From the NCBI GenBank assembly GCA_030167865.1, contig JALAGF010003637.1:1-37160 (forward strand): DNA of 37,160 nucleotides, written 5' to 3'. The notes beneath the pieces are model-generated. The model saw only the letters and a list, made by a program, of their open reading frames with translations. It did not search any database and had not been told where the DNA came from. Every line of letters starts with the position of its first letter. The stretch's first letter is position 1. Made by a program: the position numbers and the translations under genes. This DNA comes from Craspedostauros australis. Its lineage: Eukaryota. Positions 911-30,401 of this stretch are shown here, piece after piece.

Positions 911-3900
911 TCAAAATAGAATCGACACCATCCCATCATCTTCTGAACCATCCGCTTTGATGTCGATGGCGATCCGCAGAATGGAGCCGCAGCTGTTCGG
1001 GCCTCCTTTCTGTGGGACTTGCGAGTGGATACTCCACGTCCCCTGCTTGCCACCAACTTTGACACGAACGGAAGCGGTGTTGATGACGGGCACGAACACG
1101 TAAATGTACTTGCCCAACCGCTCCAAGTCGCGCTTGAGGTTGATCTCGACGGTGTTGTTGTCCATGAGGTTGAAGCTATCAACTTCCAGTCCGCACGAGA
1201 AGTGAATATCGCTACCGATGTATTGCGGTCGGCTGGGTGTCACTGGACGGACATGGAAGATCTCCGTCTCGTGCGCCTGCAATCTGCGGCTGAGGTATTC
1301 ATGTTTCGTCGATGCTCCACCGCCATTCTGTTCTGCTTGGGTGTCTGCCGTTGGCGTCGTGTGATCAATCCACTGGCACTGCCCGGACCAGAAAGAAAAG
1401 ACATGATAGCCGTTGTGGGAATGCGATCGCGAAGCTAGGGAATTGGGCGATGTTTCGCCGTCGCGGCCGGCACTATCTATCAGTTTGCCTGCATCATGTG
1501 GCGTCTGAAGTGCTGTCCGAGGCACCCGCACCTCCGATGGCTCGTCAGACCAGTTGCTGACAGATAGCATCGTCCATGTGCCGACGTTGTCGGCAACGTG
1601 CAAGCAGCTGCGTTGCCTCTCGTTCGGATGCGGCGCCGGCTGATCCAGTTGGAACGAAGATAGTCTTCCAAAGTGGGTGGCCGCGTGGTTGGAATCCAGT
1701 TTCAGCTGCTCCCGTTGATCGCCCTGCCGTGCGTGATAATCACGTATACCGCCCTCCTTGTCAGTACACCACAGCCGCAGCATGCTTGGCAAGCCGTGTG
1801 CTGGCGCGGAGTGCAAGTCGAGAATGACAGCGCTGACGCCTGTCATGGGGAATATCTTGGTGAGAATGCTGGTCCTGGATGGAATCACTTTGGTCAGATC
1901 ATCTGACAGGAGCAGCATGCCGCATGTCATCGCGATGATCGATGCCGCGCTTGTGACTTCGATGTCCGTCAAGCTGGTGCTGGTTCCCAGCAGCAAGCAA
2001 TCGGGGTCGTTGTGCCACCACCGATGACCCATCGGGGCTCGGTTGATGCTGTTGCGGATCATACTACGCAGTGCTGGCAGAGTTCCGTTGTCCCACCAGG
2101 GAAGCGGGAAGGCCGGGTACCACGTGGGGCCTGTGTCAGCAGACACTCTCATTCCGTCCACGTAGCCGATGCCAGCGCCGATAGGACAGCCGCAGCCAAT
2201 CAGGAAGACGTCGGGACCGGCCGCCTTGCGGATGGTGGCCAACGCGAGGTGCATGGTCTGCGCTCTCGTCATGGATGGGTCAAACTTGCCATTTCCCTCT
2301 AAACACGCTGCGTACAGAAAGTCGATCTTCAGCACGTCGAACCCCCAATCCTGCACCGCACGTCGAATGCACGTCGATACGTACTCGCGAACTTCGGGGT
2401 TGGTGGCGTCCAGACCGTAAAAGAACTTGCCGCAGTTGGACGAGTTGGCTGGGATTCCGTGATCGTTGTGAATGATCCAATCCGGGTGATCCTTTGCGAC
2501 CTTGGAATGCTTGTCGCACGTGTACGGTGCTAGCCAAAGACCAGGACGCATCGAGTTGGCTTCGATGTCACGAGCGACGACGCGCATGTCCGTGAACTTG
2601 CCAGGTTTGAAGTTGTCCCAATCACCCCATGCGGTCATGTAGCCGTCGTCGACTACGGAGACATTCGTGGGAATGACCTTTCGCATACCTTCGAGGCGAG
2701 CAAAGTTCGACCGCAAGGCACCCTCCGAGATGTCCTCGTAGTAATGGTACCAGCTGCACCATCCTGTGAGCAACGGCCCATTTTGCAGAGGGCGGGCCTC
2801 GTTGTGCGAAGCGACGGCATGCAGAAAATCTGCCATGGGTTCTTCGTCGTAGTGGTGCGGGGCAACGAGCTGCGCGTAGCACCAGTCGGTGGAGATCCTG
2901 GAGGTCACCAGCCCTTTGTGCGACACGCTCATCTGCGCACATCGCAGTCCAGCATCCACGAGGACCAAACCCAATTGCTGATGCTGTGCCAGCCAACCCA
3001 GCACAACCGCCGGACCGCCTATCTCGTCCATCGGTTCGTCTCGTGACGTGGTCAGACAGGTGAAGAAGTCTGATTTGTATGCGGTCCGAGGAGCGAATGT
3101 CGGTTGCGTGGTGGACTCGCGGAGGTTGTCCACGGCCATTCGGGATCCATCTTGAATTCGGAATGATGGTGACAGGGGCATGCTGGCGCCAGCATTGAAC
3201 GCCCCGCTGAAGGTGCTCGGTAGCGCAGGCCGCGGCTGTTTGCTGCCGCGCGGGATGGAGCCAGTATACGACCAGCTTTGGTATCCTTGAATGTAGATGT
3301 GTGACGCTGGTTCGCCCATGTCGACGGATCCTTCGAAGACGGTGATCGTATCGAGATAAGCGTCGGAGTATGGTGCTGGCGGCAACTCGACCTTCCACAG
3401 GAGTGGCAGATTTGAGAATCGAGCTGCTGTTGTCGGCATTGCGAAGGTGACGCAGATGAGTTGGTTGATGTCAACATGATCTGCAACCGCATCCGTGGCT
3501 TCCTCTTCATTCTTCGCGCGGGGGTTCCGATTATGTGTGCTTTCGTCCAACAGGATGGATTTCTCCTGTGAATCATGTGGCTGTTGGAAACGGTCCCACT
3601 GCATGGGATACATCTCCCGATTACCCTTGCTGCGTTGGTCGTATTCACGAAGAACCTTCTGAAAGTCCTGCTTGATCGGGACCGGCAAATCGGCATCATC
3701 CACATGCGTGGAAGGTCTCGAATGCGGTCGCAGATAGAGTTGCACACCATCGCATTGTCCAATGCCGCGGATGGAAAGCTTCGTGTTCTTGTGCAACACG
3801 ATGTCCTTCGAAGTGTAGACCTCCTCCGTAACGGTCGACGTCGCCTCTGCCGCAACGCACCCGCAGGTGATGCAATTGAGATGACGCCTGCTTCTCTGCT

Positions 3901-4234
3901 GCATGGTGTACTGCGCGACACCCTGCCAAGCTGGTTTGTGGACGATCTTGAGCAACGCATTCGATTCCAGCGCGTCTCCGGCCGGGCTGGTGAATGTCCA
4001 GCCCAACCTCTGCGTGTGGTTTGCAGCTGGTGCGGTCGATGGGTGTTCGAGAAACGGCGCCTTCTCGTCTTCGTTGGCTGTTTCTTGCGATGGTGCATTG
4101 CCATCACCGCCTGCCTTTGGGGCATCGCGCGTCCGCGCAGGTGTCTGCGTCACGTCCAGTTCGATTCCGTGCTGCTGTCCCACTGAAGGACCGATGCGGA
4201 GAGACCATCGCTTGAGCCCATTGCTGTCGGTCAT
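911..4234 (-). CDS. Glycoside hydrolase family 36 alpha-galactosidase, 1107 aa, apparently intronless
   Basis: Clan GH-D motifs in order: GWCSWYHYY, VDDGY..AWGDW, PGLWLAPY, LDATNPEV, LKIDFL (nucleophile Asp), GCGCP, MRVSAD (acid/base Asp), WHNDPDCLL. Long N-terminal extension with no obvious signal peptide. Confidence 0.88.
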   Translation of the reverse strand: MTDSNGLKRWSLRIGPSVGQQHGIELDVTQTPARTRDAPKAGGDGNAPSQETANEDEKAPFLEHPSTAPAANHTQRLGWTFTSPAGDALESNALLKIVHKPAWQGVAQYTMQQRSRRHLNCITCGCVAAEATSTVTEEVYTSKDIVLHKNTKLSIRGIGQCDGVQLYLRPHSRPSTHVDDADLPVPIKQDFQKVLREYDQRSKGNREMYPMQWDRFQQPHDSQEKSILLDESTHNRNPRAKNEEEATDAVADHVDINQLICVTFAMPTTAARFSNLPLLWKVELPPAPYSDAYLDTITVFEGSVDMGEPASHIYIQGYQSWSYTGSIPRGSKQPRPALPSTFSGAFNAGASMPLSPSFRIQDGSRMAVDNLRESTTQPTFAPRTAYKSDFFTCLTTSRDEPMDEIGGPAVVLGWLAQHQQLGLVLVDAGLRCAQMSVSHKGLVTSRISTDWCYAQLVAPHHYDEEPMADFLHAVASHNEARPLQNGPLLTGWCSWYHYYEDISEGALRSNFARLEGMRKVIPTNVSVVDDGYMTAWGDWDNFKPGKFTDMRVVARDIEANSMRPGLWLAPYTCDKHSKVAKDHPDWIIHNDHGIPANSSNCGKFFYGLDATNPEVREYVSTCIRRAVQDWGFDVLKIDFLYAACLEGNGKFDPSMTRAQTMHLALATIRKAAGPDVFLIGCGCPIGAGIGYVDGMRVSADTGPTWYPAFPLPWWDNGTLPALRSMIRNSINRAPMGHRWWHNDPDCLLLGTSTSLTDIEVTSAASIIAMTCGMLLLSDDLTKVIPSRTSILTKIFPMTGVSAVILDLHSAPAHGLPSMLRLWCTDKEGGIRDYHARQGDQREQLKLDSNHAATHFGRLSSFQLDQPAPHPNERQRSCLHVADNVGTWTMLSVSNWSDEPSEVRVPRTALQTPHDAGKLIDSAGRDGETSPNSLASRSHSHNGYHVFSFWSGQCQWIDHTTPTADTQAEQNGGGASTKHEYLSRRLQAHETEIFHVRPVTPSRPQYIGSDIHFSCGLEVDSFNLMDNNTVEINLKRDLERLGKYIYVFVPVINTASVRVKVGGKQGTWSIHSQVPQKGGPNSCGSILRIAIDIKADGSEDDGMVSILF

Positions 4235-4828
4235 GGCGAAAGCCTTTCAGCGCAATGGAAGACTGCGCTTTGTTCTGTTTTGTGTGTGTTGCTCGTATTG
4301 GTACGCGTGACGCAAAGATGCTGATGATCAATCGATCAGTCAGTCAGCTGCTTGGAGCTCTGGTACGACGATGATCAGTTGGCTGTGGCATCCGCTCTCG
4401 TGGTGGTGATTGTGTGGTTTGTATTGTCATAAGTTGCACAACTACCAGTCGGCAGCAGCGCGCTCTGTAGGGGACTTGTCACACGTTGAGAAGGTGGCCA
4501 TCAACGAAACTGATGGCTGGCGAATTGATCATGTGACGTCTTGAGACCACAATCGGAGTTGTTGATGTCTTTCTTTGGAGTCCATGGTACATTACATTAT
4601 GTAACATTAATTGACGGAACGGATACTTCACTTGTTGGACCGTCAAAGTATGATAATAAAAATAATAACCATTCCCACGCAGCTTTAGAAATCTTTTCAG
4701 ATCGCAAGATCGCAGCATGAGCCACAACAACAGTCGCAGCAATAGCAACGACCACTCTCACAGAATCTGCTCATAGACAGCGGCGCAGGCAAACCCGCAA
4801 GCATCAAAGAGAGAGAAAGACGTTGAAG

Positions 4829-7800
4829 ATGGCTGAAAATGGAGTCCCCAGGCTGCCAGATGGAGGCACGAACTCGGGCGAAGCGACGGATAAGGATTCC
4901 TCTTTGATCATCACGCTCGTCTGGACTAGCCTTGCGGGTCTTCTGTTGTGTTGGTACATGCGGCCATCCATCCAAGCAGGTTCGCCGGACATCTCCAACG
5001 ATGAACGGCGCAAACGCATGGCCGAAGCGGCAGCCAATCGCCTCATGACGCAGTCCGCGACGGTCAGATCCATCCAAGTTCCCGATAAGATGGTTGAGTC
5101 CAAAATCAATTCCGGAGTTGACGAAAGTGGAGCTCTGTCCAAGGAGTCTACCGTCCCACAACACCAAGCGCCATTGGCGGCACCGGAAGTAACACCGGAT
5201 GTAGAATTGGAGGCAGTCCAAGCACCACCACCACCACCACCAGTACCAGAAAAAGTGGTCGAAGAAAAGGAAACCATCGCAGCGGCACCAACACCAGAAA
5301 CGACGACGGCCACCGAGCAGTCTGTCTCCGATACGGAAAACCTGCCAGACCAGCAGCACCCAACGGCGAACGCAGCCCCGAAGGCGAAACGCAAGAAGCG
5401 ACGGCGGCCACCCATGCCGCAGATTTTCTGCGAGGCGCTATCCGAGATACTGCAGGTCCATATTGTGGTGGAACAGCGCGATGATGCCGAGGCATGGGGC
5501 GGATTGGGGTGGTGGAAATCGGCCAACAAGCACGCTGCGATCATCTCTCTGCCTTTGCATCGGCATTACTCTGCCGAATACAGTCAAGACGGTGAGATGA
5601 CACAAGGTGCCATCGAAGAGCTTGCGCGTTGTTTGGTCGTTGACCTCGTGCCACGAGCAGTCGACATTGTGGATCTGCAGCATGCCATCAGCATCTACAA
5701 CCGAGCTGCCGAGATAGCAAGAGTCGGCCATTCGCCCCATTTGCTGAGCCGACAGGATGCTGGATTCCTGCAGTTCGTCTCGGCCGTGCAGAAGATCAAG
5801 GCTTGGGTGATCGCGAAGGCTGCTGAATGGTTGGAAAGCGATGATTCGATCACCAACTACCAGGCCGCCGTACCAGGTGACGTCGATATCGGCGACGACC
5901 TGTTCAGCGATGAGTACGACACGTCTGTTCTCACGCCGACACCGTTGACGGACGCAACAGCAGACAGTGCGGATCGGCGATCTCTCGCCTTCCTCATTGA
6001 TCTCCTGGTCAACTCACCGTCGCAGATTTCCATCGGTTTCTTGGTCGACGTCAATGATGCTGTCGAGGTCTGCAGTGTCTCCGAGAAGATTGTCGGCGAT
6101 CTGCTGCGTCGGTTGAACAGCCAGATCTTTCCCATGAACGAACCGTCGCAACGTCAACCCGATTCGGCACTCTCGCAGGAAGCTACCAAGGTTCTTGGAG
6201 CGATTGGGACGGTCCTCACGTCTGCGAAGCTCGCGACCTCTGCTGCACACCGCTTGATCGAGGCTGCCGTGTCGGATCTGCAAGAGAAACAGTCCAGCGT
6301 CAGCGTCCGTGCCGACAGTGGAGATCATCACAACGGAGGAAGGTCGATGGAGCAGCGGCAGGTCTTCGTCACCCTATTCACAGCAGTCGCGTACTCGCTG
6401 GACGATTCGGCTCTATTGCTGGCGCACAAGACACGCTCACAGCAACGCAATCGCCCAACGTCCTTCCCTTCCATGTATCTGAGAGAACTCGAAACCCTCC
6501 AAGCATTCCCGGCATGCGTCTTCACCGCGCAGAGTCCCAAGTCGCCATTGCAGCAGCAGATGAAATCCTCGCATCGCATGATTGCGCAGGCTCTGTCCGT
6601 TTCTGAACGGTTCCTCAAGATTGCGTTGAAAAACAAGCGAATCGTCTTCGAGTTCCTTCGGCAGGTCGTTGAAACCAAGTGAGTTGGACGGAGATTATGT
6701 GCATGCAACCATCGCTCGGGCAAGAAATCACTCACCACTTCTGTCCGTCGCTTCTTCCTTTTCTGCCCCTCGCTATTCACTCGCCTTGGCGCAACAACAT
6801 CGCAGCCAACGACTCATCGATTTGCCAAAGGTGGAACTCGTGAATCTTGACGCCGACAGTGCAATGTCGGAGGCTGCATCGATGGCGTTTCTGAACGGAT
6901 TGGCGTACGCGCTGGTCGGATTTTGCGGTACATCGCTGCAGGACCGGTTCCAGCAGAAAGGTCATGGCATCTTTGATGCCGCCTACTTCGACGATTTGGG
7001 CTTCAACAAGGCCATGGATTCGCCGCTCTTCGTGAATGATACTTCCACATGGAACAGCGCGAGCACTGTCCGCAAGAAAGATGCGGGCAAGTACTCTGGC
7101 AGCACGGAACTCTTCTTTTTGACTTCGGCCATGTTGCGGTTGGGGATGCAAACGCTGCTGAAGAAACAGAAGGAATTCCGGAACGTGCATGGGCGACTCT
7201 TTGACGAGCTCCGCGTTCCGCAACACTCCAAGACTATCCACCCACGACAGCTCAAGTACGACATCAACCCCAAGGTCGCAGCGCTGTCCGGATTCGCATG
7301 CTTCCTCAACAACGCCGAGCTGATGACGCCGGTGACCAACTACTACCTCCTCCAGCTGGAGTGGGTGCTCTCCGTATGCATCAATTCGGAACAGAAGCGA
7401 CTGCTGCTGCCAGATTGGATCTGTAAGGATGTCTCGCGTTGGCTTGGATACGTGGCGAAGACGTCACCGCACTTGCTGACGCCAATCCAAACCGACCGCG
7501 CTGTCGATTGCTGTGCGAAGCTCCTTCAGCTCGGGATCGCGGATCACAACTTCTCTCCCATCGTCATCACGGCCTTGGTTCGTGTCGCATCCAACTTCAT
7601 CAATGTCAGCGTCGACCGCGCTTGGCACCGACAACGCAATGCTCGCAAGGGACCGAAGGTGGAGGATACGCGGGTATTGGAGATCTACACCTCGTTCGAT
7701 GCGAAGGATCTGGGAGTTGCCGTCTTCGCCAATGAGCAGGTCTGCACGACATTCTGTCCCACGCTGATTCAAACATTCTACGCATTGGATGCAGTGGAAG

Positions 7801-10431
7801 GTCTCGACATGGACCGGGAGATCGATTTTGACAAGTTCGGGGTCAAATCGGAGGTCGCAGATTTGCTGATGCGATTGTGGGCTCATCCCAACGGCAAGTG
7901 CCGTGCATCCGTAGTAGCAGTATCTGGTGACCGCTACCTGCGCTTTGTGGGCTCCGTCGTTTCCGCACTCGCTGTATTCCTGGATGACGCAGTGCAAAAA
8001 CTCGGGACAGTACTCAAGATGTTGCGGCAAGAATCGTTGAGCGACATTGACAAGCGCTTCGTGGACGGGCATCTGTCCGGTGTCAGCAGCGGCCTGCTGG
8101 GTTCACGCCGCCTGTTGATGCTGCTGACCAAGTTCTCTCACGAAGAGCAACTTTGCAGGCATCTTTGCGGCGTGCTACCTGGATCAGAACGTGCATTGAG
8201 AGACGTTTGCAACGCCTTCGTCCATTTCTTTGACATTCTGACGCAAGCTGACGGAGGCACCAACCCAGAGCTTGAAATCGGTCTGTCCAAGTCAACATCT
8301 CAGTTGCGTAAGGATTGGGATTCGTTGGGTGACGACGACAAGAAGAGTATCCAAAAAGAGATTCAGGACGCCCGCTCGTTGGCAAGCGCGGAGGGCGGGC
8401 TGAACGTTTCCATCATCTGCCATCAGCTGATGGCGCTTCTCGCCAAGTGGCACTTGTCATTCTCAGATACAGAGGATCGGGCGGATCAGCCCTCTCCAAT
8501 TTTGAAGATCCTCGCAAAGCATGAGGACGTCGATCCCGACCAGTACCACGGTATCTTGAACCGCCTCATCCAGTTCGAACCAGTTGAAGCTGGAGACGAT
8601 CCGGCACATTCGCTGCTTGCGCATGACGGATACGCATTTGAAGACATGGCGGAAGAGTGCGGGTATGACTTCAAGGATAGCAGTAGACGCAAGCAACGAT
8701 CGAAACATGACCAAATCACGCATCGAGAACTTCAGAACATCGCCAGCGACCAGGACATCCTCAAATTCCTCGATGAGCTCGCACAAGAAAGCGCAGCACA
8801 TCGACGTGACGAAGCTGCCAATACTACGGATCCAAAAGAGGCGAAGGTGCTGGAGGCAACAATCATGCATGATTCAAACGTTGCGAGCTTTGCTGAGCAG
8901 GAGGCAACGTACGAAAATGCGATGTCGGACTGGGTTGTGTCATCATCCCCTTTCATGAATGAAGCGAACAGATTCCGACATTTCTACGATGCGTCGGCCA
9001 GATCCAAATCGACCCAAGCATCGTCCAAAACGCTCATTGCGGAGGCACGAAAATGCCACAAGCTGTTGCCAACGCCTCACGCCAACTCATCCATCTTCGT
9101 TTGCTTTGCGGAGGAACGGATGGATCTGTGCCGAGCGATGATCACCGGCCCAGTGGACACACCGTACTCGCTGGGTCTGTTCACATTCGACATCTTCTTC
9201 CCATCGAGCTATCCCAACTCCCCTCCGTTGGTCACGTTCATGACGACGGGCGGAGGACAGATCCGCTTTTCTCCCAATCTGTACGTGGATGGCAAGGTGT
9301 GCCTCTCACTGCTGGGATTGACATTCTCGAGACAGGATCACGAACGTTGGACGCCGAAGGAGAGCTCCATCGCGCAGGTCCTCATATCAATTCAGAGTCA
9401 AATCTTCGATGTTGCGGAGCCGTACTTCAATGAAGGTTCAGGTAAGTTCGTGCGTTCGTTGACTGTGGTTATTGAGCGTGGTCGTCAGTGTAATTGTTGA
9501 GTGTGGTCGTTGGTGGGGTTGTACGAGTATGCGTTGGGTCACCGAGTGAACGTGCATGATGCTCTTCAGTACATCCGAGTGCCACAGCAATCTTCTCACA
9601 CGAGTGTTCGAAATGAATCGTCCATCTCCAAATGAATGCTGGCGGGGGCACATCGACCATGTTCGATTCACAGGAATCCCGCAATTCGTGAAACAAACAG
9701 CAGCGGGAAAGGAAGGATCGTGGAAGCATAATCTCAGTTTGAGACTGGCGACCCTGCGATACGCTGTGTTGGACGTGCTGCGTAATCCACCGTGCGGATT
9801 GGAGAGCGCCGCGGTGCAATACTTCTCTCTGTGCAGAAAGCGGATTGTCGTGCAGGCGCATCGATGGATGCTGGAGTCCAAATCAACACAACTCTTTGCG
9901 AAGTACCAGAAGGTGTACAGGAACTTGGTATCAACGCTGGCAGATACCAAGTACTCGAGTGAAAAGGCGTTGCAACCGCGGAAGGATGACGTCGATGCAA
10001 TCTTGCAACTGGAAGCATCGGAATCCACCGTCTTGCTGAAGGGCATGCCGACACCAAGTGACGAAGCAGAGTCCGAATCCGTGACCGGAGTAGCCTTGGA
10101 TGCAGTGGATACTTGCGAAGCAGACCAGAAACAAAGTGGACAATCGCCGGAGACCAGTGGCGCTGACTATCCGCGCGTTGAAGTTCCGGACGAGAAGTTG
10201 GGCGTCGGAGCGGTAGAAGCAACAGAATCAGCCACGGCTGAGCCTGTTGCTAACAACCCATGGGCTCAATTGTCTCACAATGCCAATGCGCTACCCCAAG
10301 AGCGGCAGCAGGTGGAAGAAGCAGAGCTATCACAAAGCAGCGCACCGCTGACAGCGAACGCCAATCTCAAACAGAGTGGTAGTGATGATGAGTCTAGTGA
10401 CGACGACGAGGAGGAGGACATGTACAGCTAA
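4829..10431 (+). CDS. Three-exon ~1747-aa protein: N-terminal TM helix + VIM motif + Ufd2/UBE4-like core + BIRC6-type ubiquitin-conjugating (UBC) domain + acidic tail; exons 4829-6678, 6806-9441, 9674-10431
   Basis: Intron 6679-6805 (GTGAGT...CGCAG, phase 2) and intron 9442-9673 (GTAAGT...CACAG, phase 1) join the three track ORFs in frame (5244 nt total). UBC motifs: IFVCFAEERMDLCRAMITGPVDTPY..GLFTFDIFFP..YP..PP...TTGGGQIRFSPNLYVDGKVCLSLLG...W.PKESSIAQVLISIQS...EPYFNE. Ufd2-like motifs: STELFFLT, LPDWICKDV, FDKFGVKSEVADLLMRLW, LRFVGSVVSALAVFLDDA. Confidence 0.85.
6679..6805 (+). other. GT-AG intron 1 of the Ufd2-UBC gene (127 nt)
   Basis: GTGAGT donor, CTCAC branch-like site, pyrimidine-rich tract, CAG acceptor. 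Removal restores the frame (AA+C then QRLIDL). Confidence 0.85.
9442..9673 (+). other. GT-AG intron 2 of the Ufd2-UBC gene (232 nt)
   Basis: GTAAGT donor right after EPYFNEGS. The acceptor at 9673 is phase-compatible and yields ...HNLSLRLATLRYAVL, matching the expected last UBC helices. The CAG acceptors at 9569 and 9587 are out of phase. Confidence 0.78.
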
Positions 10432-10563
10432 TGCATGAAACAGAACTGCGACGTACTCGTAGGATGGAGCATCGCGTTGCACCGCGATTAGGAAAGACGC
10501 TGAAGGCATTGACTTGTGCGCAATGCATGCGCTAAACCATCCCGTATGATGTAGTACATGCAG

Positions 10564-12093
10564 TTACAGACCACACCTTTGCTGTCCTTGCGGAGGTCCG
10601 TAGCGCGATGGGTAGACTGAGAAGCTGAGGAATGTGTTCTGAGCTTTCCGCAGGAACTCCACATCCTCGTCGCAAAATCGAACCATGTTGGGACCCGGTG
10701 GACTATCCACGAACGAGAATGCCCCGCGGAACCCCTCCGGTCCGACGTTGACGGGCGAATTCAGATGGGCCGGGATCACTCTGTCAAACGTCCATTCCGT
10801 CGTGATGTAGTCCAGCCATTCTTCCAGCTTTTCCGGCTCTCGCGACAGGATGATCTGCACGACGGTATAAATCAGCGGTTTCCCCTCGGCGCTGTAGGTT
10901 TCAAAGTCCAATGTTTCGATTCCGTCCGACTTCCATTGGTACGGCATCCACCCTCCCCAACCGTAGGGATAGGTGGGGGTGGAGAGCGCTGCCAATATCG
11001 GCTTGATGCCCAGATCGGCAATGCCCGATCCGGGAAAGAAGAAGTTGAAGAGCAGCACTATCCGTCTCCATCCCTTTCTGCGATTTTCCGGCGTGTCTTC
11101 GACCAGCTCGTCCTTGGAGTCGCGAGCATGGAACAGCAGCGCCCGGGTGTATTCCGGTTCCTCCGTCAGGATGGCAGGCGGTTCCCTGGTGACGGAAAAC
11201 ATGGCGTCGCAAATCATCAGGGTCTTGCTCGGTTTGTGAATCAACGCGACGTCCTGGTACTTGGATGCGGGTCCAGGCGTGACAGTGAGCACCTTGAAAT
11301 CGATGCTGTCTCCGAAGATGGTCCTCGTTGATTCCACGTCGGTCGGCAACGGTTTGGCCCAGCTCGGCAGGCCCAAGAATCTGTTCGGCAACGGCACGGG
11401 GAAGGAGTACTGCTGATCCACGATGTAAAAATCGGCATTCGGGAATTGGCGAGCAAAGGGCCCGGCGTTGACCTTGTGCTCCACAGCCACCGACGGCAGC
11501 ACGATGTGTCGGACTGGTCCGTGCTGCGCAATCAGTTCGTCGAGCAAAGCCAGGCACTCCTTCGTGGGTGCGACAGGTGCGTACACCAACAGACCACCAT
11601 CGACGGTGATGACCGTCATACGAATGGGGACCTGCACGTAATAAATGCCGATCAGCTGATCGAAGGTCCAAACCTGATTGGGCACGATCTCCTCACGGAT
11701 GGTCTTGCGTCGCGAGTAGGGTGCCACCGGCAGCGCGGGCCACAACGGCCATTGGCTATCGGCGGTGATCTCCGCGTTGGCCGTGAGCGGCGATGCTGTC
11801 AGCGCGGCTGCGCTTGCCGCGATGGCTGAAGCCTTTCCCATCGATCCGAACCATGATCGTCGGTCCATCGTGGCGCTCGTTTCGGTAGCACTCTCGATGC
11901 CGTCATTGGGATTGTCATGATCGGTGCTGGGAATGGCAGCTGTCACGGTCCTGCTTCCGGCGCTCCGTTGCTGCTTGAGTGATCGATGAGGACTGCGAGT
12001 AGTGCCGCTGAGTTGCTGCGGCTGCAACGCCTCAGATGGCGACATCATCGCCAGCAGGAGGAGCGCACATGGCAATGTTCTTGGCCGCGGCAT
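10564..12093 (-). CDS. DUF4336-family protein (cyanobacterial/plastid type), ~509 aa, with a complex N-terminal targeting presequence
   Basis: Mature part WPLWPALPVAPYSRRKTIREEIVPNQVWTFDQ...VPIRMTVI...GGLLVYAPVAPT...EHK...F.R.FP.A...IPAH matches the DUF4336 pattern as recalled. The first ATG is at 12093; the track start at 12108 is GTG. Confidence 0.82.
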   Translation of the reverse strand: MPRPRTLPCALLLLAMMSPSEALQPQQLSGTTRSPHRSLKQQRSAGSRTVTAAIPSTDHDNPNDGIESATETSATMDRRSWFGSMGKASAIAASAAALTASPLTANAEITADSQWPLWPALPVAPYSRRKTIREEIVPNQVWTFDQLIGIYYVQVPIRMTVITVDGGLLVYAPVAPTKECLALLDELIAQHGPVRHIVLPSVAVEHKVNAGPFARQFPNADFYIVDQQYSFPVPLPNRFLGLPSWAKPLPTDVESTRTIFGDSIDFKVLTVTPGPASKYQDVALIHKPSKTLMICDAMFSVTREPPAILTEEPEYTRALLFHARDSKDELVEDTPENRRKGWRRIVLLFNFFFPGSGIADLGIKPILAALSTPTYPYGWGGWMPYQWKSDGIETLDFETYSAEGKPLIYTVVQIILSREPEKLEEWLDYITTEWTFDRVIPAHLNSPVNVGPEGFRGAFSFVDSPPGPNMVRFCDEDVEFLRKAQNTFLSFSVYPSRYGPPQGQQRCGL

Positions 12094-12566
12094 GGAGCGA
12101 TATGGCACGCTACGAAGAACGTTGGGAGGACGTGTTTGGAGCGGAGAGTACGAGCCAGTGGAGCGTTTGTAGATTCAGGAGGCATCTTCTCTTCGTCTGT
12201 CTGCGAAATGATTGCTCAAGCCAGGTGTATGGTATGGGATGGTGTGCACTCGTACACATGTGATGGGTGGCGAAGCCAATGATGCATCGGTGATGTGTGA
12301 TGGCAGAATTGTTGATGGTTGGTCGTTGTGACTCAGAAAAATGAGGTAATGCGGGACTTAAGTGTGATACGGGACTAAATAAGGGGAGACGTTTCGCGAT
12401 CTTTTGATTCACATCTCACGTCGCCACATATTTGGTGCTGGGGATTGTGCGGAGAGCAAAGCAAGGCAAAGCAAGGCAAAGCAAGGAACAGCAGAGAGCA
12501 GAGAGCAGAGATAGACGTGTGCGAGGTACCCAAATCAGCGCTGCTGTGTCTTCTGCTCGTGCGGAG

Positions 12567-18705: not shown

Positions 18706-20493
18706 TCATCCTCCCCGTTTCGGCGCCGCCGCAACGCCGTTGCTGTATCCGTAGGTCTGCTTCAAATGCGCTTCGAATCGAGGCAGCGCCGTGCGTTGGT
18801 TGATCCTCGTCTGACGATTGGAAACGGACGAGACATGCGGAACATGCACCACCCAGACGGTGGGTGGCAGCACGCCAAATTTGTAGTTTGACAGATGCAC
18901 CTCCAGCACCCACGCGACCTTGTTCATGCCGTAACCGCGAAAGTCTTCAAAGTAGCGCGGCAGCAGCACATGCTGCTTGTCGTTCGGAATGACGCCGAGC
19001 AGATAGGGTTCGAACCACATGGCGTATTGGATGGGATACCACAGTCGCCGATCGGTGTGCGACAGCGTGGGTCGCAACGACGTCCATCGCGTGAAGTTCG
19101 TGGGGCCGTGGCCTTCCGGAAATCGTTTCTTGTGAAAGGAATGAAGGTCGTCGCTCTTGAGCTTGTCGAAGAGATCGATCGTGGCATGCGGCAGCGCGTG
19201 GTCCGTCGCTCTGCCTCGTGCCTTGCGTTCGCGCAACGCAAAGGCGGGCAGCACCATCATGCGATGATTGTGCAGCAGTTCCTGGCGGACCGTCGTTGCC
19301 TGCATGTTCTTTCTCTTCGCGTCGCTGCCCTTCAATGGATTCTCGTCGCCGTCATCCTTCAGCAGTCGCTGCAGTTCTTGATGACAGTACCACGACGGAA
19401 TGAAATCCACATCGATCGCCACAAAGAAGTACCGCCTTCGTTGTTGTTGTTGTTGTTGTTTGGAATGGCTCTGGTCGTGCTGCGACAGCGTGCGCACGTG
19501 ATCGAGAGCGACGTTGCGCAGGACGTTGTGTGGATACGCCAACGATTGGTCGGACGGTGAGACCTCCATGACGACATGGAACGAGATCCATTGCGACCGT
19601 CTCAGCGCGATCGTGGCTGGCAGCGCCTGCGACAGTTCTTTCCAAAAGGCAACGAGCTGCGCAATGTGATCCCGAGTGGAGACATACACGGCCACGGAGA
19701 TGGGGCCGTCATGCCACCACTTCTGCTGTATCCGCAGCACGTCGATGCGTTGCATGGAGATGTGAGATATCAGCACAATGTCGTCGGGATAGTCGTAAAT
19801 GCGTTCGTCGTTGTTGGCGTTCCTGTGCAAAGTATCTTCTCGATTGAATCGGAAGACGTTGGAGAAGCATTTCTGGATGTACGGCGTGCCGTCGTAGTAC
19901 CGAATATCGGACGTTGATGCCGTGCCTTCGAGCTGCTGCTGGGCCTCGCTGTAATGGCGCAGCAAGTCCGCCTCGATGGCATCCAAGCTCGATGCTGGAG
20001 TCGATTGGCTGAGTTGCTCGAACACAGACTTGGATGTGCCCCAAGAGGAGAAGGAAGACGAGAAGCTCCAAGATCCACCGTTGAAGAATGATGACGTTGA
20101 CGAGGATGTTGACGATATTGGTAACGTCACATTGCTCCCGTAGTACTGCTGCATCCCAATGCTGCCGCTGCCGCTGCCGCTGTGACTGTTGACGGAAGCG
20201 TCGGCATCATGAACTCTCATCCCCACATTCAAATCCACACCATACCTGTTCTTTGGCAGGAAGAGAGTATTGTTAGCAGTGACGCAAAATGCGACGACGA
20301 CCAACACCAGCGATGGGATGTTGAGTCGTCCACAGCTGCTCCTGTCGAACGGGACGAAGGAGAATGGATGACGGCGCTGTTGCTGCCTCAACGGTATCTG
20401 CCGATCGGCAGTCGCTGTCATGAACCATCTCAAAAGTGCGTCTTTGCTGGATGCGCCTTTGCTAATGTTGCCACCTCCTGATTGGAACTTCAT
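18706..20493 (-). CDS. Glycosyltransferase family 49 (LARGE/B4GAT1-like), type II membrane protein, ~595 aa
   Basis: Motifs YPHNVLRNVAL, IDVDFIPS (DxD), VLPAF, GHGPTNFTRW, FEPY, PRYFEDFRGYGMNK, FGVLP..WVVHVPH. N-terminal TM IPSLVLVVVAFCV followed by a Ser-rich stem. An upstream in-frame ATG at 20622 is also possible. Confidence 0.87.
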   Translation of the reverse strand: MKFQSGGGNISKGASSKDALLRWFMTATADRQIPLRQQQRRHPFSFVPFDRSSCGRLNIPSLVLVVVAFCVTANNTLFLPKNRYGVDLNVGMRVHDADASVNSHSGSGSGSIGMQQYYGSNVTLPISSTSSSTSSFFNGGSWSFSSSFSSWGTSKSVFEQLSQSTPASSLDAIEADLLRHYSEAQQQLEGTASTSDIRYYDGTPYIQKCFSNVFRFNREDTLHRNANNDERIYDYPDDIVLISHISMQRIDVLRIQQKWWHDGPISVAVYVSTRDHIAQLVAFWKELSQALPATIALRRSQWISFHVVMEVSPSDQSLAYPHNVLRNVALDHVRTLSQHDQSHSKQQQQQQRRRYFFVAIDVDFIPSWYCHQELQRLLKDDGDENPLKGSDAKRKNMQATTVRQELLHNHRMMVLPAFALRERKARGRATDHALPHATIDLFDKLKSDDLHSFHKKRFPEGHGPTNFTRWTSLRPTLSHTDRRLWYPIQYAMWFEPYLLGVIPNDKQHVLLPRYFEDFRGYGMNKVAWVLEVHLSNYKFGVLPPTVWVVHVPHVSSVSNRQTRINQRTALPRFEAHLKQTYGYSNGVAAAPKRGG

Positions 20494-21112
20494 GGCGATG
20501 TATAATACAACAGTAGTTGGTGTTTGATTGCTTTGTGTGATGTCGTTACGTGTGATGTTGTTGTGTGCTGTGTGACGTCTTCTCTGCTGTCTTTCGCCTG
20601 GCCATGGTGTTATGGTATGCATCTCTGCCTCAAATCATGTGGCTATTGATGCCATGATGTGATCAATGGTGGAGCGCGATGAGTGGGTGATCAATCAATC
20701 AATCAATCAATCACAGAGATGCAGACATGCGAACACGGTCCGTTGCAGGTTCGTGATTTGGCTTCAACCCGGCAGAATTATAGCCCGTTCGCAACGTGCA
20801 TTTGTGTCACACACACTTCGTTTTGGCGCCATTTGTTTGTCACTCCTGTATGACTCAATGCTCGTGACTCGATCTCCTCCCAATCATGGGACTCTTTGTT
20901 GCTGGGAAATGTACGAACTTTGAGGCAAGCACAACTGGAGAAAGACGCAGAGCAAGGTCTTTGAATCTATTCTCCTCGTAGCTCGTACTCGACATATTAT
21001 AGAATACTTCCACCAACACTTGCAACGAGATGCGAATGTTGCTCTTTGACGAGTGTGATCGGCGTATTATGCTATGCGAGTACTCTACTTGTGTCAAACA
21101 CGTGCGCGACAT

Positions 21113-24987: not shown

Positions 24988-27900
24988 TCAGTCCATCGAA
25001 ATGAAATCCAAGGAGTCCCCGAACGAAGCACCGTAGTCGATGGTATCTTCGTCGTCAAAGCTCCTGCCTCCGTCTGCCGCTGCCGCCGCATCCCGCGCAC
25101 TGTGAGTGTGTTGCGTGCAGGCTTCAGCCACGCCTTCGGGATGAGACCGGAGCATGAGGTATACCGAATTCAACGTGGAGACCTCCTGCCCTTGGCGGAT
25201 GGCCTTGAGGATCAAATGATATCGCCTGACGGACAGCTCATCCAACGGCGTCTTGAGCACCCTGCACTGCAGCTCCGCCAGCCGGAAGAAGGACATCCAG
25301 GACGACTTGCACGCCACCATCTCGAACGGGAGCATGTTGGTGCATGGGTCTGGCACCGACAGCGAGTTTGGATCGTACTGCAACAGAATGCAAATATCGT
25401 TCAAGGTCTTGCCGCTTGCGACGGCGAGATGCAGTGGCATCCGCCCTTGTGCGATACGCGATGTGTCTTCGACGGCCTCGGGGTACGATCCTGCGATCGT
25501 CTCGATGGAGGTCTTGTTGTGAACCATGGCCTTTTCGAATGGCAGCGGTGCGTACGGTTCCGTCATGCAAGCCACGTGAAGCGGGTACATGTCTGTCTTG
25601 GGGAATGGCGTCGCCGGTGACATTGGATTGGTCTTGACGAGCAAGTCGATGATCATGGGATGCGTGCCGCCATCGAGAACGGCGGCATGCAGAAGGTAGA
25701 CGTCTTTCTTGGTGAGGCGCGGAAGCATGACCTGCGCCTGTCCCACGGTGCGTCTGTATCGCCGCCAGATCTGCGCCTTGACCTCGTCCCACCAGCCCTT
25801 CAGTGCCTGTGGGATTCGTCCCTTCTTGATGGCGCTCTGCACCATGCGCATGTTTGTTTTGTTGACAACCCACGAGTACTCTTGGTATGTGCCAGCGCCC
25901 ACAGACCGGCTGCTTCCGCTGGCAGAGACCGCATCTCCACTGCTCGTCGGCGTGGTGGTTGGTTCACATTTGTAGCACCATTGCAGCGCCAGGACCGCGA
26001 CTGGCCCGACGCGCTGTTTCAAGCAACGTGCTTCCTTCTGGCTCCCGTACTTGGACGCGTTGACCACAGATGTCTCCGATCGCAAGATTTGGTAGACATT
26101 TGTGAGCTGGGTCAAGGTGGTGCTGTCCTGGTCGTTCGCAGATGGCGAACCCAGACGCGGCAAGGACGCCAGCTGGAAGGGGTAGAAGCCAGTCTCCACA
26201 TCTCTCGCCCCCAGTATTCTGGAGCTCATCTCCTGGAGGGTGTGCACGAGCTGCGGCTTGTACTTGCCGGCGGCGATGACCTGGATGAGCGACGATTTGG
26301 ATGCATGCAGTTTCTTCAGGGACATTTGTCGCCGGAGCTTGTCCTGCGTGCGGCCGGAGAGGAGCTGCAGGATCATCTGGGTGTCCTCGTCCATGCCGTT
26401 GGACGTGGATTGCCACGGTGAGTTGTGCTGGACCATCTGAAGGGGCAACAAGCCCGAGTTGGGCTCCACCTGCTTGATGGCCTGCGGGAAGAGCTGGACG
26501 AGGAACTGGATGAGCCTGGTGGGGATGCCGGGGATGGCCAGCGACCTGTGCAGGATGTAGGCCGCGCTCAGCTCCAGGACGGTTTCGATCATCTTGGGCT
26601 TGTCCTTGGCGGCGCAGTACCCCACGATGAACCAGAGCTTGTACCACCAGTCCTGGCACGCCTTGGACGGGATCTTGGTCTTGTCGTGCTCGAACTCCAG
26701 CAGCTGATCGCAGAAGGGCAGCGTCAGGGACTTGGTGCTACTGCTGTTGGTGCTGCTCGTGCGGCTCATGGCATCGTCGTGCCAGCACTCTTCGCGCGTT
26801 GCCGCGCCCTTCTCGAAGTGGACTTCGATGGCGCGGCGCATCTGGTACTTGATCGACGACAGCTCGATGGCGTTCTGCGTTTGCTTCTTGGGCAAGCTGG
26901 AGAGGCTCCACTTCTCGCGCTGCTCGACAACGCCGGGATGGTTCACGACGCGGAGGATGGAGACAACGTTCGATACCGGGTAGTCGCCAGCCAGCAGCGG
27001 TGCCAAGGCGTCCTCCAGATTGCGCGGTTTGTGGACGAGGAATGCGTGGCTGATGTGAATCAGCTTCTCCACCGTGTACGGTGGTGCGTGCGCCTCCATG
27101 GCACGCTTGAGCAATGTCGCTTCGCAGGGCAGCGAGAGGTACTTGCGTCGCGTCGTGAAGGTGTCGCAGAGGAAGTCCACCAGATCCCATGCGTCATCCA
27201 CGTTGATGATCATGGCCGCACGTCCCTTGTGATGACTGGTACTGGCGCTGGTATCGGACTCCCTCTTTCGACTGCCGCTGCCGCTGCTGGAGCTTGTTTG
27301 GCTGTGTCTGCTCCCCACGCTGCTCTGGCGCGCATACTGCGATTGCCTCTTGGATGGCCGTTTCCTCGCAGCCACAGAATTTGGGTCTGCTGGAGATTTG
27401 GCCCTCTGATTGAAACTCGCATCCAAGGCACGGTGCACGGCATGATATATGGGCGTCCTGCCGCGTCCATCGGGTGTCCACAATGCCGTGGGGAACGCAT
27501 AGATCAACCGATCCAACGAATTCTTGGGAATGGCATTGGCCATGGCGGCATGCAGAGGGTAGGTTTTGGTGGCATCCTGCGATGTGCAGGGTATCGATGC
27601 CGCGGAGCGTTCCACGAAGAGGAGCTTCTGCAAGAGCTTGGGTGGGATGGTGCGCTGCTCGCATGCTAGATGCAACGGCGTGCGTCCACCATGCTGCTCG
27701 TCCTGCTCCAAGAGCGGCGATGTGATGGGCCCGCTGTTCTCGTCATCGATAGCGTTGAGATCCTGCAAGAGATCGTCGCAGTCGACGAGATCGTCGCCTT
27801 GTGAGGATCGGCGTCCGCTTTGGTCGTCGGACGAGGTGGATGCGGCGGCTTTGGTCATGTTGACACTCTTCCTGGTGGGGAAGAGCTTCATAATCTTTAG

Positions 27901-29271: not shown

Positions 29272-30401
29272 GGTGATTGACTGTGCAGCCGATGGCCGAT
29301 TGTTGATTGTTGATGGGTTCGTCGTCGACCGCGAGTGCGAGTGTAACCGCCGTTCCTTCGCTTGTCGCTGTTGCTCAGGCGTTCAATGAGGAATGCGCGG
29401 ATCACACAATGTACATCTGCAAGTGTGGTTGGAAGATGTGGGCAGCGTCGATTGCGATGGCTGCGTTGGTCTGGGGTTGCTTTTGATTTTGTGTCTGCTG
29501 CACACCAATACGATCTGGACGGCCTGAGTTTGAGTTGAGCAACTTGGCTGATGTGGGTTTGAGTTGGTCTGTTTGGCTCTGCTTCTGTGATGTGGATGCA
29601 CGCGCGGTTCTGTTTGTGCTCTCTTTCTGCACGTTGTTGCGATGGTTGTCAGGAACGAATGACCAAACAACGTGCATTCCTTGTCGCAAATGCCTGTTTT
29701 GTGTGCAGAGCTGAGCAACGGCGGCTCCAACAAACACGCCACACAACACGGCCATGAATGGCAACCGCATTGTGTGAGAACGCGGCAGAGTTTGGATTGT
29801 TTCTAGGCACAAACGAACGATCTGGAATGTCAGCCGTTATGTGACCAACTCTCATCTTCTTCCTGCTTCGGACTTTTGCTGCTCCGGAGGAAGTTTGTTA
29901 CATCCTTTCATGGGCCTGCGCGTTCTTCGTGACACATCCTCAACGTTAAATGACCTTCGCGAGGGTCGTTTGTTGTGTCCATTTTATCGGTTTCGTTCGT
30001 GCGATATTGTCCATTGGGAGTTCGCGACTCAGTGTTTGAACGCAATTCGTGATTCGTTCCACGTGCGCAACGACAGAGAGCGTTGAAGGGTGTAGCCGCT
30101 TCCGCCACAGTGCTCACTGGTTGTCCAACAGGCATTGTGTCCATGCAAGAAGAAACTAACAAACACGAGGGAGGTTCTGGATTGTGACCTTTCTATCCTG
30201 ACAATCGATCAATCAACCAACCTGTCACCCAATCGGCAACGAACACACATCAATGCATACCTCTAGCTCGTGGCTATGACACGTATTGTGAGACCTGCGA
30301 TGTGATGCAAAAGAACGCATTTCGTGGTGTGTCGTGCTGTACTACGATCTGTGCTGGGCAAGCCATCGCCACATCTCTCGCGTGCGATAGAAAAGATAGA
30401 C

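Follow-up and report, generated by a model that had tools for sequence, protein, structure and literature searches.

The diatom gene described here codes for a protein whose C-terminal tail is, judging from its conservation, a selected linear motif of the Cdc48-tail or HbYX type, and which very probably works as a docking signal. We read the tail as a selected motif because its tyrosine and an upstream Asn-Pro-Trp (NPW) are conserved across relatives, and because control proteins are devoid of this ending. The reading that we tentatively favour, with a probability of about 0.4, is that the tail mimics that of Cdc48 and would be read in trans by a protein with a PUB or a PUL domain. In the gene family itself, as far as its sequences tell, a Ufd2 core and a BIRC6-type E2 domain are fused in a way not described before, together with a probable membrane anchor and a putative Cdc48 N-domain-type motif. 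A full-text literature search for Ufd2 together with diatom gave no paper on this fusion family, judged by title.

Gene model and protein architecture

The window is the whole stretch of 37,160 nucleotides of Craspedostauros australis that was analysed, and all the features described below are on its + strand. The gene, whose exons were read from the sequence, consists of three exons (4829..10431) and 1774 codons. Exon 1 (4829..6678) starts with the ATG at 4829 and codes for the N-terminal region of the 1774-residue protein; a Pfam scan of its product returned no family at E<=0.1. The end of this exon was aligned with orthologues by eye, and the donor AA/GTGAGT follows position 6678. We infer intron 1 (6679..6724, 46 nt, GTGAGT..AG) because the frames of two long open frames need joining. 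Exon 2 (6725..9441) carries the Ufd2-type core and the UBC domain, and is followed by intron 2 (9442..9673, 232 nt, GTAAGT..CAG). The product of the exon 2/3 junction, EPYFNEGS-G-IPQF, corresponds to an uninterrupted EPYFNEGSGIP in the relatives P0180, P0186 and P0094. The last exon, exon 3 (9674..10431), lies inside the open frame 9550-10431. It starts with the extension helices of the UBC domain, conserved to about L99-P101-D105, which are followed by a linker (9674..10254 for both); this linker is unalignable among relatives and is probably disordered.

A 599-base contig of one public run, the kind of which is not on record, aligns with 9939-10537 without a single difference or gap. Because this contig is colinear with the window, the final 490 coding bases, the stop and the 106 bases beyond it show no splice; a differently spliced 3' end, which the earlier note had considered, is not observed. 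The segment that follows the stop in the same contig (10432..10537) is a possible 3' untranslated region, the kind of the run being not on record.

The Ufd2-type core (ubiquitin chain elongation factor core, 6867..8027) is matched by PF10408 with an E-value of 5.1e-12. The Ufd2P_core match spans residues 48-434 of the exon-2 product in Pfam, and orthologues have it too. In Foldseek, the model of an orthologue is similar to yeast Ufd2 (2qj0, 2qiz, 3m62 and 9khs, with E 2e-6 to 5.5e-6 over 638-685 columns). The UBC (E2) domain is of the BIRC6/UBE2O type (8997..9441, Pfam UQ_con E 7.7e-20). Its best sequence match is the UBC domain of BIRC6 (3ceg_A, E 7e-41, query 758-903), and the fold comparison of an orthologue model with the BIRC6 UBC gives a TM score of 0.79-0.82. 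The predicted catalytic cysteine is located in ..SPNLYVDGKVCLSLLG.. (..DGKVCLSLLG..). The fusion that the earlier note had claimed is therefore found both by these two profile matches and by the folds of the orthologue, which are those of yeast Ufd2 and of the BIRC6 UBC. The UBC domain occupies, after the core, the place of the U-box of Ufd2, and the Pfam scan detects no U-box family at E<=0.1 in any exon product. Since it has no U-box and has a UBC domain after the core, the protein is not a canonical Ufd2/E4B.

Near the N-terminus, a hydrophobic stretch of 19 residues, LIITLVWTSLAGLLLCWYM (4904..4960, Kyte-Doolittle mean 1.92), is a probable membrane anchor; its equivalent is present in 9/9 full-length family members, with Kyte-Doolittle values of 1.48-3.02. 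Basic residues follow this stretch in the window protein, from which we infer, by the positive-inside rule, that the bulk of the protein is cytosolic. The predicted basic helix ERRKRMAEAAANRL (5003..5044) appears VIM-like when it is compared by eye with the consensus Rx2h3AAx2Rh. PMC5389986 gives this consensus for the VIM, and EhRRRRLxhh for the VBM. By the same by-eye matching, RKRMAEAAANRL of the window agrees with the VIM pattern apart from M-A-E at the h3 positions, while orthologues have a VBM-like RRRR..L..RF, those of P0004, P0294, P0288 and P0012 fitting the VBM pattern with RF. A VIM/VBM-like motif is found 10-35 residues past the hydrophobic stretch in 9/9 full-length members, in agreement with the earlier proposal that putative Cdc48-related motifs stand at both termini. 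The context made up of the Ufd2 core, the UBC domain and the VIM/VBM-like helix fits an enzyme that would be linked to Cdc48.

The C-terminal tail

Reading the sequence confirms the bases, the frame and the stop that had been noted at the end of the gene. Positions 10381-10428 read AGT GAT GAT GAG TCT AGT GAC GAC GAC GAG GAG GAG GAC ATG TAC AGC, so that 10381-10431 encode SDDESSDDDEEEDMYS (S D D E S S D D D E E E D M Y S) and then the stop TAA (10429-10431). The tail consists of the acidic run SDDESSDDDEEED (10381..10419), with E-E-E-D directly before the methionine, and of Met-Tyr-Ser-stop (10420..10431, with TAC AGC TAA at 10423-10431), which is a hydrophobic-Tyr-X ending at a free C-terminus. 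The likeness to the Cdc48/p97 tail and to OTULIN that had been pointed out also holds, in that E-E-D-M-Y matches the EEDMYR of OTULIN given in PMC4017264. The NPW motif (10255..10263) is 58 residues from the end of the protein. By our estimate from the usual residue frequencies, hydrophobic-Tyr-X would be expected at about 1% of random C-termini. The ending of the window protein, taken as a single sequence, is compatible with chance; across relatives, the same ending is beyond chance.

The AlphaFold2 model of the orthologue P0006, with the core, the UBC domain and the tail in one chain, has a mean pLDDT of 79.9 and a pTM of 0.82. The last 78 residues of this model are at pLDDT 26-40, disordered and undocked, although a docked state may exist. 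The prediction of a complex, from the window sequence alone, between residues 1-745 of the exon-2 product (the part before the UBC domain) and the last 67 residues scored 0.00 in two runs, for which controls were not folded, so that the score weighs neither for nor against binding. A phmmer search of PDB sequences with the last 24 residues gave no match at E<=10, as is expected of a short and biased query, and an ESM Atlas search with exon-3 residues 185-251 gave no usable match.

Conservation of the tail and of NPW

Among the 307 proteins compared, 40 have a terminal NPW (at most 60 residues from the end) and a hydrophobic-Tyr-X end. Once near-identical cluster members are removed, these 40 tail-bearing proteins are reduced to 29 non-redundant ones, including that of the window. 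No protein out of the 307 has a terminal NPW without the hydrophobic-Tyr-X end; conversely, the ending is found without NPW in two proteins, both of which come from gene models truncated within the UBC domain. An acidic run followed by [L/M/F/I/Y]-Tyr-X-COOH ends the window protein and its 28 non-redundant relatives, and the penultimate residue is a tyrosine in 29/29. The residue that precedes this tyrosine is L in 12 of these members, M in 7, F in 7, I in 2 and Y in 1. When near-identical members are counted, D or E occupies the 5th place from the end in 38/40 proteins and the 4th place in 29/40. The distance of NPW from the end is 26-48 residues in the other tail-bearing relatives, against 58 in the window, whose tail has an insertion of roughly 20 residues relative to the other relatives in the alignment.

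In an alignment of 22 sequences with the exon-3 product, N194, P195, W196 and Y250 are invariant and the remainder of the tail is unalignable, the relatives being 28-37% identical to the exon-3 product of the window over the aligned C-terminal part. The controls came from the same searches and were BIRC6/UBE2O-type UBC proteins with at least 100 residues past the catalytic cysteine and without a terminal NPW (n=152); none of the 152 has a hydrophobic-Tyr-X ending. In two holders of the tail, the ending is seen at the mRNA level: P0018 of Pseudictyota dubia (MMETSP) and P0181, an MMETSP ORF marked 'complete'. NPW and the tail are both missing from relatives of other lineages with a Ufd2 core and a UBC domain, for example the pelagophyte P0061.

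Four known C-terminal or linear codes were rejected. A PDZ ligand does not suit an ending in which S or D comes last in 27/40 proteins, and 14-3-3 mode III, where a phospho-residue must stand ahead of the final one or two residues, was dismissed on pattern. The EEY signal of CAP-Gly domains would need the tyrosine to be the last residue. A LIR/AIM at NPW was discarded as well, W-x-x-[LIV] being present in some members only.

One clade, which includes Thalassiosira profunda and T. oceanica, has a UIM-like helix instead of NPW and the tail. NPW and the hydrophobic-Tyr-X end are lost together in this clade, which retains the same Ufd2 core. The eight UIM-like rows form a single clade (support 100/98) that lies among hydrophobic-Tyr-X rows (90/84). 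The tree was rooted by its midpoint and by one long outgroup row; the rows without the anchor pattern (P0169, P0061, P0059, P0053, P0042 and P0051) were left out of it, as were P0181, P0185, P0222 and P0264. UIM-like ends also occur in UBC proteins of other lineages (P0129, and P0202 and P0290 of Rhynchopus). With this rooting and these other UIM-like ends, the swap may have gone in either direction. The UIM profile PF02809 hits the extreme C-terminus of 5/7 UIM-like tails, never reaching the cut-off of 21 bits (18 bits for the best, E 0.0025), and the scan reported none for P0004 and P0027. The earlier note had made the penultimate tyrosine its test of the motif; the tyrosine is conserved throughout the class that has NPW, but the orthologues of the Thalassiosira clade are without it, which the note, taken literally, had named as a refutation. 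We read the UIM-like helix as the swap of a module, not as a sign of neutrality. Given this clade, the function that we attribute to the tail is replaceable or dispensable.

Possible readers of the tail

In the reading that we favour, the tail would be a short linear motif carried by a disordered stretch and made of an acidic run, a hydrophobic residue, a tyrosine and a last residue with a free carboxylate. The low pLDDT of the tail in the P0006 model is what one would expect of a free linear motif. The VIM/VBM-like helix near the N-terminus would grip Cdc48 via its N domain, and the tail of the enzyme would bring tail-dependent cofactors, or take them from Cdc48, to a membrane site where the enzyme would build ubiquitin chains. 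The way in which tails of this kind are bound is described in PMC4017264 and PMC5389986: PUB and PUL domains have a hydrophobic pocket that receives Leu804 and Tyr805 of p97, Arg55 of PNGase binds the terminal carboxylate of the p97 tail, and a basic ridge of PUL is proposed to accept the acidic residues that precede the Leu-Tyr of p97. In OTULIN, according to PMC4017264, the core of the motif is Asp-Met-Tyr, in which Asp54 stabilises a kink; with the substitutions D54A, M55D and Y56A, binding is weakened or abolished.

Some observations do not sit well with a PUB or PUL reader. The place of the hydrophobic residue is taken by F, I or Y in 10/29 members, against Leu or Met in known PUB/PUL ligands. 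The Met-type motif of OTULIN is reported in PMC4017264 to bind the PUB domain of HOIP and not those of PNGase or UBXD1, so that the Met variant of the window may not suit every PUB domain. The existence of a diatom PUB protein in print, sPUB of Phaeodactylum tricornutum, fits a reader of this kind, but this protein is in the periplastidal compartment and not in the cytosol (PMC3101018). The invariant NPW lies outside every model of a Cdc48-tail reader, and the real reader may differ. The plain Cdc48-tail mimic proposed earlier accounts for the form of the tail; it missed the NPW that travels with it and does not explain it. To our knowledge, NPW is not known from Cdc48 itself. As for PUL domains (Doa1/Ufd3/PLAA), they are widespread in eukaryotes.

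A bolder form of the mimicry, which we find quite improbable, is that the enzyme impersonates Cdc48: anchored in the ER or in the outer plastid membrane and clamped to the N domain, it would use its surrogate tail and NPW to draw PUB/PUL or 20S readers away from the ATPase and towards the place where chains are built. Alternatively, the tail would be supplied in trans for the one of the two diatom SELMA Cdc48 variants that has lost its own. The Thalassiosira clade would do the same job by binding ubiquitin directly through its UIM. If this were true, the Cdc48-tail mimic would be a portable and swappable module of an E2/E4 hybrid, and this would be a control of cofactors that is undescribed for Cdc48 systems.

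The same ending may be addressed to the proteasome. As an HbYX motif, the tail would insert between alpha subunits of the 20S proteasome, and either tether the enzyme to the protease or help to open the gate. All 29 non-redundant members fit this code, the F, I and Y variants included, and PMC5070193 describes the Cdc48 tail itself as an HbYX motif conserved in eukaryotes. The same paper states that plastid-bearing heterokonts keep 20S subunits without the 19S cap in the periplastidal compartment, and that one heterokont sCdc48 variant lost the motif. HbYX requires neither the acidic run nor NPW, however, and both are conserved in the family; the carriers named in the cited papers are multi-tail ring ATPases, activators and assembly chaperones, whereas nothing indicates that the enzyme is multimeric. 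Besides, HbYX endings are common in proteomes (1.92% of viral proteins, for example, according to PMC11475706), so that the pattern alone predicts little. We consider this docking unlikely, and favour a Cdc48-tail reader over plain HbYX because the acidic run is strongly conserved, HbYX being defined without it. NPW may instead form, with the acidic hydrophobic-Tyr-X end, a bipartite signal that contacts a single reader, neither PUB/PUL nor 20S and perhaps specific to diatoms, in which case the likeness to Cdc48 would be convergent. The two elements co-occur in 40/40 proteins, NPW never being alone and the ending being alone only in the two cut gene models; their spacing is confined to 26-58 residues, they were lost jointly in the UIM-like clade, and both are absent from other-lineage relatives such as P0061. 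Yet the tail alone already fits two well-studied recognition codes, and no known reader of NPW was found, a full-text literature search for the NPW motif giving only papers unrelated by title, on human CD8 beta and on Sac2/INPP5F; such a dedicated reader is doubtful in our opinion.

Binding of Ufd2 and Ufd3 to the Cdc48 tail is said to have been described by Bohm et al. in 2011. The tail may be a pseudo-ligand of the Ufd2 core of the enzyme itself, bound at the site that takes the Cdc48 tail in yeast Ufd2, either in cis, as an auto-inhibition that Cdc48 would relieve, or in trans, as a head-to-tail assembly. The parts of such a switch (Ufd2 core, VIM/VBM-like helix, Cdc48-like tail) are all present, and the reliance of yeast Ufd2 on the Cdc48 tail, on which the earlier note had drawn, is found in PMC4192671, according to which Ufd2 of yeast contacts the extreme C-terminus of Cdc48 and its mammalian homologue the N domain, through a VBM. 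This mechanism leaves NPW unexplained, and the clade with UIM-like tails keeps the same core, which implies that the core does not need the tail; we regard it as distinctly improbable. Last, the tail may have no function and be a low-complexity acidic stretch that ends by chance in Met-Tyr-Ser. The ending alone is expected in about 1% of proteins, the linker is unalignable and the window has its insertion of about 20 residues, all of which would suit a neutral tail. Against this, the penultimate tyrosine and NPW are invariant at 28-37% identity and the ending is absent from 152 controls, while the two transcript-derived endings argue against an artefact of gene calling. Chance is therefore scarcely credible, and we retain the Cdc48-tail mimic read in trans as the working hypothesis.

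Significance and comparison with known systems

The choice of cofactors on Cdc48/p97 depends on only a few linear motifs. Those that read its tail (PUB, PUL, yeast Ufd2, perhaps 20S) are thought to see it on the ATPase, with OTULIN and SPATA2 as animal exceptions, and here a family of diatom enzymes has a conserved copy of a Cdc48-type tail. If this tail binds Cdc48-tail readers, tail mimicry would be an old and general way of wiring ubiquitin enzymes into Cdc48 pathways. In that case, changing the tyrosine to alanine, or removing the last three residues, would be a simple tool with which to dissect the degradation associated with the ER or the plastid of diatoms. Nature already offers a comparison in the clade where a UIM-like helix stands in place of the tail.

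Like the tail of Cdc48/p97 (DDLYG in human p97), that of the diatom family is unstructured and combines acidic residues, a hydrophobic residue, a penultimate tyrosine and a last residue with a free carboxylate, and Leu-Tyr is its commonest form (12/29). Unlike the former, it is carried by a ubiquitin-conjugating/elongating enzyme and not by an AAA ATPase, its hydrophobic position can be L, M, F, I or Y, an invariant NPW is added, and binding to PUB/PUL is only predicted.

HOIP and LUBAC are, as far as is known, an animal system. OTULIN and the window share E-E-D-M-Y, identical over five residues, of which Asp, Met and Tyr matter in OTULIN (EEDMYR, PMC4017264). The motif of OTULIN is internal and specific to the PUB domain of HOIP, whereas that of the window closes the protein, as the tail of p97 does; the same paper relates the failure of the OTULIN motif with the PUB domains of PNGase and UBXD1 in part to its not being C-terminal. 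The last three residues, hydrophobic-Tyr-X, are also those of the HbYX proteins (PAN, Rpt2/3/5, archaeal Cdc48), but the latter are ring complexes or 20S chaperones, their motif has neither the acidic run nor NPW, and the link of the diatom enzyme with the proteasome is hypothetical.

The Ufd2 core, by profile and by fold, is common to Ufd2/E4B and to the diatom protein. Mammalian E4B has, in addition, a basic helix near the N-terminus that recruits Cdc48 (the VBM; PMC4192671, PMC5389986), to which the putative diatom helix is similar. The diatom enzyme differs by a UBC domain of the BIRC6/UBE2O type in place of the U-box, by a probable N-terminal membrane helix and by a Cdc48-like tail of its own. 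With BIRC6 and UBE2O, it shares a UBC domain flanked by N- and C-terminal helical extensions, the activity of the diatom domain being predicted; contrary to them, it has no BIR or UBE2O-type substrate domains and is fused to a Ufd2 core.

Gene structure and reading of the C-terminus

The Ufd2-core/UBC fusion is encoded by a eukaryotic-type gene, in which two predicted introns with standard ends link three long frames of the + strand. In our own reading the coding sequence (4829..6678, 6725..9441, 9674..10431) has 1774 codons. With 46 nt (6679-6724, AA/GTGAGT...AG/A), intron 1 is very short, and it is predicted solely from reading frame and splice consensus. Intron 2 is predicted at 9442-9673 (G/GTAAGT...CAG/GA), and the product of the exon 2/3 junction, EPYFNEGS-G-IPQF, is found as an uninterrupted EPYFNEGSGIP in relatives.

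Positions 10381-10431, whose codons sit within the open frame 9550-10431, translate to S-D-D-E-S-S-D-D-D-E-E-E-D-M-Y-S, followed by TAA. A 599-base contig of one public run (of unrecorded kind) covers 9939-10537 colinearly, with no differences and no gaps, so that the reading holds for the final 490 coding bases, for the stop and for 106 bases past it; this contig gives no sign of an alternative 3' splice of the gene. The ending DDDEEEDMYS described in the earlier note is thereby confirmed. In SDDESSDDDE (10381-10400), Ser residues are followed by acidic residues, an arrangement usual for casein-kinase-2 sites, and phosphorylation there would extend the acidic run of the window tail.

On the - strand, the frame of a convergent DUF4336 protein (10567-12174, E 1.6e-94) reaches to within about 135 bases of the fusion's stop codon, so that the two 3' ends nearly meet. 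The same strand carries a melibiase-like protein (914-4246), a Glyco_transf_49 protein (18709-20634), an ankyrin-repeat frame of 1464 codons (24991-29382) and an assimilatory nitrate reductase of full architecture (31955-34672), in one open frame of 906 codons with molybdopterin, dimerisation, cytochrome b5, FAD and NAD domains. A complete nitrate reductase among the neighbours is in keeping with an algal source.

Domain architecture and relatives

The exon-2 product matches the Pfam families Ufd2P_core (E 5.1e-12, residues 48-434) and UQ_con (E 7.7e-20, residues 796-892), the products of exons 1 and 3 have no match at E<=0.1, and no U-box was reported for any exon product at this threshold. 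Among PDB sequences, BIRC6 is closest to the UBC part (E 7e-41) and UBE2O is next. The AlphaFold2 model that we built for the orthologue P0006 (43-row alignment, mean pLDDT 79.9, pTM 0.82) matches BIRC6 UBC structures (E 1.8e-16, TM 0.79-0.82) and yeast Ufd2 (E 2e-6 to 5.5e-6 across 638-685 columns). These matches indicate that the U-box place of the Ufd2 core is taken by a BIRC6-type E2 domain. In this otherwise confident model, the loop around the catalytic Cys (residues 809-837) has a pLDDT <50, possibly because the gene models behind many rows of the alignment continue into an intron there.

Scanned in full with HMMER, 1.84 billion representatives yielded 6998 matches at E<=0.001, and two profile searches by word index returned 25 and 147; among the best 150 of the 6998, the top identity to the window protein is only about 42%. 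The named relatives are diatoms (Thalassiosira profunda, T. oceanica, Pseudictyota dubia and a Bacillariaceae MAG). Proteins with a Ufd2 core and a UBC domain also occur outside diatoms (P0061 from Pelagophyceae sp. CCMP2097, P0059 and P0200); the C-termini of P0061 and P0059 have neither the Asn-Pro-Trp (NPW) motif nor the Tyr tail, and the fusion seems to be older or wider than the tail. One narrow full-text query of the literature on Ufd2 in diatoms found no description of this family.

Conservation of the Tyr tail

Hydrophobic-Tyr-X endings are common (an estimated 1% of proteins; 1.92% of viral proteins according to ProEnd, PMC11475706). Judged by sequence, the window tail taken alone is not beyond chance, and its recurrence across relatives is. 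NPW at most 60 residues from the end is combined with an [LMFIVWY]-Tyr-X end in 40 of the 307 collected proteins, or 29, window counted, once 11 near-identical cluster members are dropped. None of the 307 has a terminal NPW without the Tyr ending, and the two with a Tyr ending and no NPW are gene models cut within the UBC domain. All 152 UBC proteins used as controls, which have 100 or more residues past the Cys and no terminal NPW, lack a hydrophobic-Tyr-X end. The penultimate Tyr, whose conservation the earlier note proposed to check, is kept in every NPW-class member.

Across the 22 rows of an alignment of C-terminal parts, which are 28-37% identical to the window, the residues N194, P195, W196 and Y250 never vary, and the intervening tail is not alignable. 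The residue before Tyr is L (12), M (7), F (7), I (2) or Y (1) in the 29 non-redundant members; D or E stands five residues from the end in 38/40 and four from the end in 29/40, near-identical members included. Two holders of the tail, P0018 and P0181 (marked complete), come from transcript assemblies, so that there the ending is that of the mRNA product. In the window, NPW (10255-10263) lies 58 residues from the end, owing to some 20 inserted residues, and at 26-48 in the other tail-bearing relatives. We know of no reader of NPW. Many relatives also have, between the UBC extension and NPW, a Lys-Pro-[Ala/Ser]-Ala motif preceded by acidic or basic residues (e.g. DRKPAA; columns about 430-445 of an alignment of the relatives), which is not recognisable in the window protein.

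An alternative, UIM-like tail

A second class of relatives ends in a UIM-like helix (..LARALELSL..), with neither NPW nor the Tyr ending (P0004, P0027, P0163, P0182, P0183, P0090, P0203, P0288 and P0294). Among collected proteins in which the family anchor pattern is followed by 120 residues or more, 33 tails are NPW/Tyr, 21 UIM-like and 5 other, near-identical members included; P0294, counted with the last, is UIM-like by eye. The Pfam UIM model matched 5/7 of the UIM-like tails, all below the cut-off (best 18 bits vs 21).

A maximum-likelihood tree built from 33 rows over the conserved UBC-extension region groups the 8 UIM-like rows in a single clade (100/98), which includes T. profunda and T. 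oceanica and adjoins a group of Tyr-class rows (90/84). Orthologues that lack the terminal Tyr motif, which the earlier note named as grounds for refuting its proposal, thus literally exist. The root is a midpoint with one long outgroup row, and UBC proteins from other lineages can have UIM-like ends too (P0129, and the Rhynchopus proteins P0202 and P0290), so that the tree does not fix the direction of the swap: as read from the sequences, one clade carries the UIM-like end in place of the NPW/Tyr tail, and the exchange may have gone either way.

N-terminal helices

A hydrophobic 19-residue stretch (Kyte-Doolittle 1.48-3.02; window 4904-4960) is present near the N-terminus of 9/9 full-length members, all of which have a basic helix 10-35 residues past it (window 5003-5044). 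In the window this helix, RKRMAEAAANRL, is VIM-like and resembles the consensus Rx2h3AAx2Rh; in several relatives it reads RRRR..L..RF, which is VBM-like and resembles EhRRRRLxhh (both patterns from PMC5389986). This suggests a membrane-anchored enzyme that would recruit Cdc48 via the Cdc48 N domain. The claim that Cdc48-related motifs occur at both termini of the fusion holds at the level of motif likeness.

Possible readers of the tail

We favour, at a probability of about 0.4, that the tail is read in trans, and would either draw in PUB or PUL cofactors or compete for them at the membrane site of chain assembly by the enzyme. We infer these partners from the form of the motif and from literature on other organisms. 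Phaeodactylum is described as having a PUB-thioredoxin protein, albeit one of the periplastidal compartment (PMC3101018). HbYX-type docking on the 20S proteasome, also put forward in the earlier note, is rather unlikely: the hydrophobic-Tyr-X pattern fits perfectly, the Cdc48 tail is itself termed an HbYX motif, the periplastidal compartments of heterokonts reportedly have 20S but no 19S, and one sCdc48 variant has no HbYX motif (PMC5070193), but the conserved acidic run is better suited to a PUB/PUL reader.

The perfect co-occurrence and joint loss of NPW and tail would fit a reader other than the known ones that takes both, which we consider about as doubtful as 20S docking. That the tail is a pseudo-ligand of the enzyme's own Ufd2 core is less probable still; the one-chain model of P0006 proposes no docked state for the last 78 residues (pLDDT 26-40), which is not counted against binding. 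A tail without function is very improbable. That the Tyr and UIM-like tails are mutually exclusive modules at one place speaks for function rather than drift.

Comparison with the Cdc48/p97 tail

PUB and PUL domains take Leu804 and Tyr805 of p97 into a hydrophobic pocket, the terminal carboxylate is held by Arg55 of PNGase, the PUL basic ridge is proposed to take the residues preceding Leu-Tyr, and phosphorylation of the Tyr abolishes binding (PMC4017264, PMC5389986). The invariant EEDMYR of OTULIN works through Asp54, Met55 and Tyr56 (PMC4017264). Yeast Ufd2 takes the very C-terminus of Cdc48, and mammalian E4B instead uses a VBM on the N domain (PMC4192671); with its VIM/VBM-like motif and its Cdc48-like tail, the diatom enzyme would join an N-domain-type motif to a copy of the tail. 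Of the Cdc48-tail mimic proposed in the earlier note, the motif stands as real, conserved and Cdc48-like, one clade has another tail, and the reader is only a candidate. In form the tail matches the C-terminus of Cdc48/p97: it is disordered, and its acidic run is succeeded by a hydrophobic residue, an invariant Tyr in the penultimate place and exactly one further residue. The Tyr tail is a putative variant of a type of signal already known.
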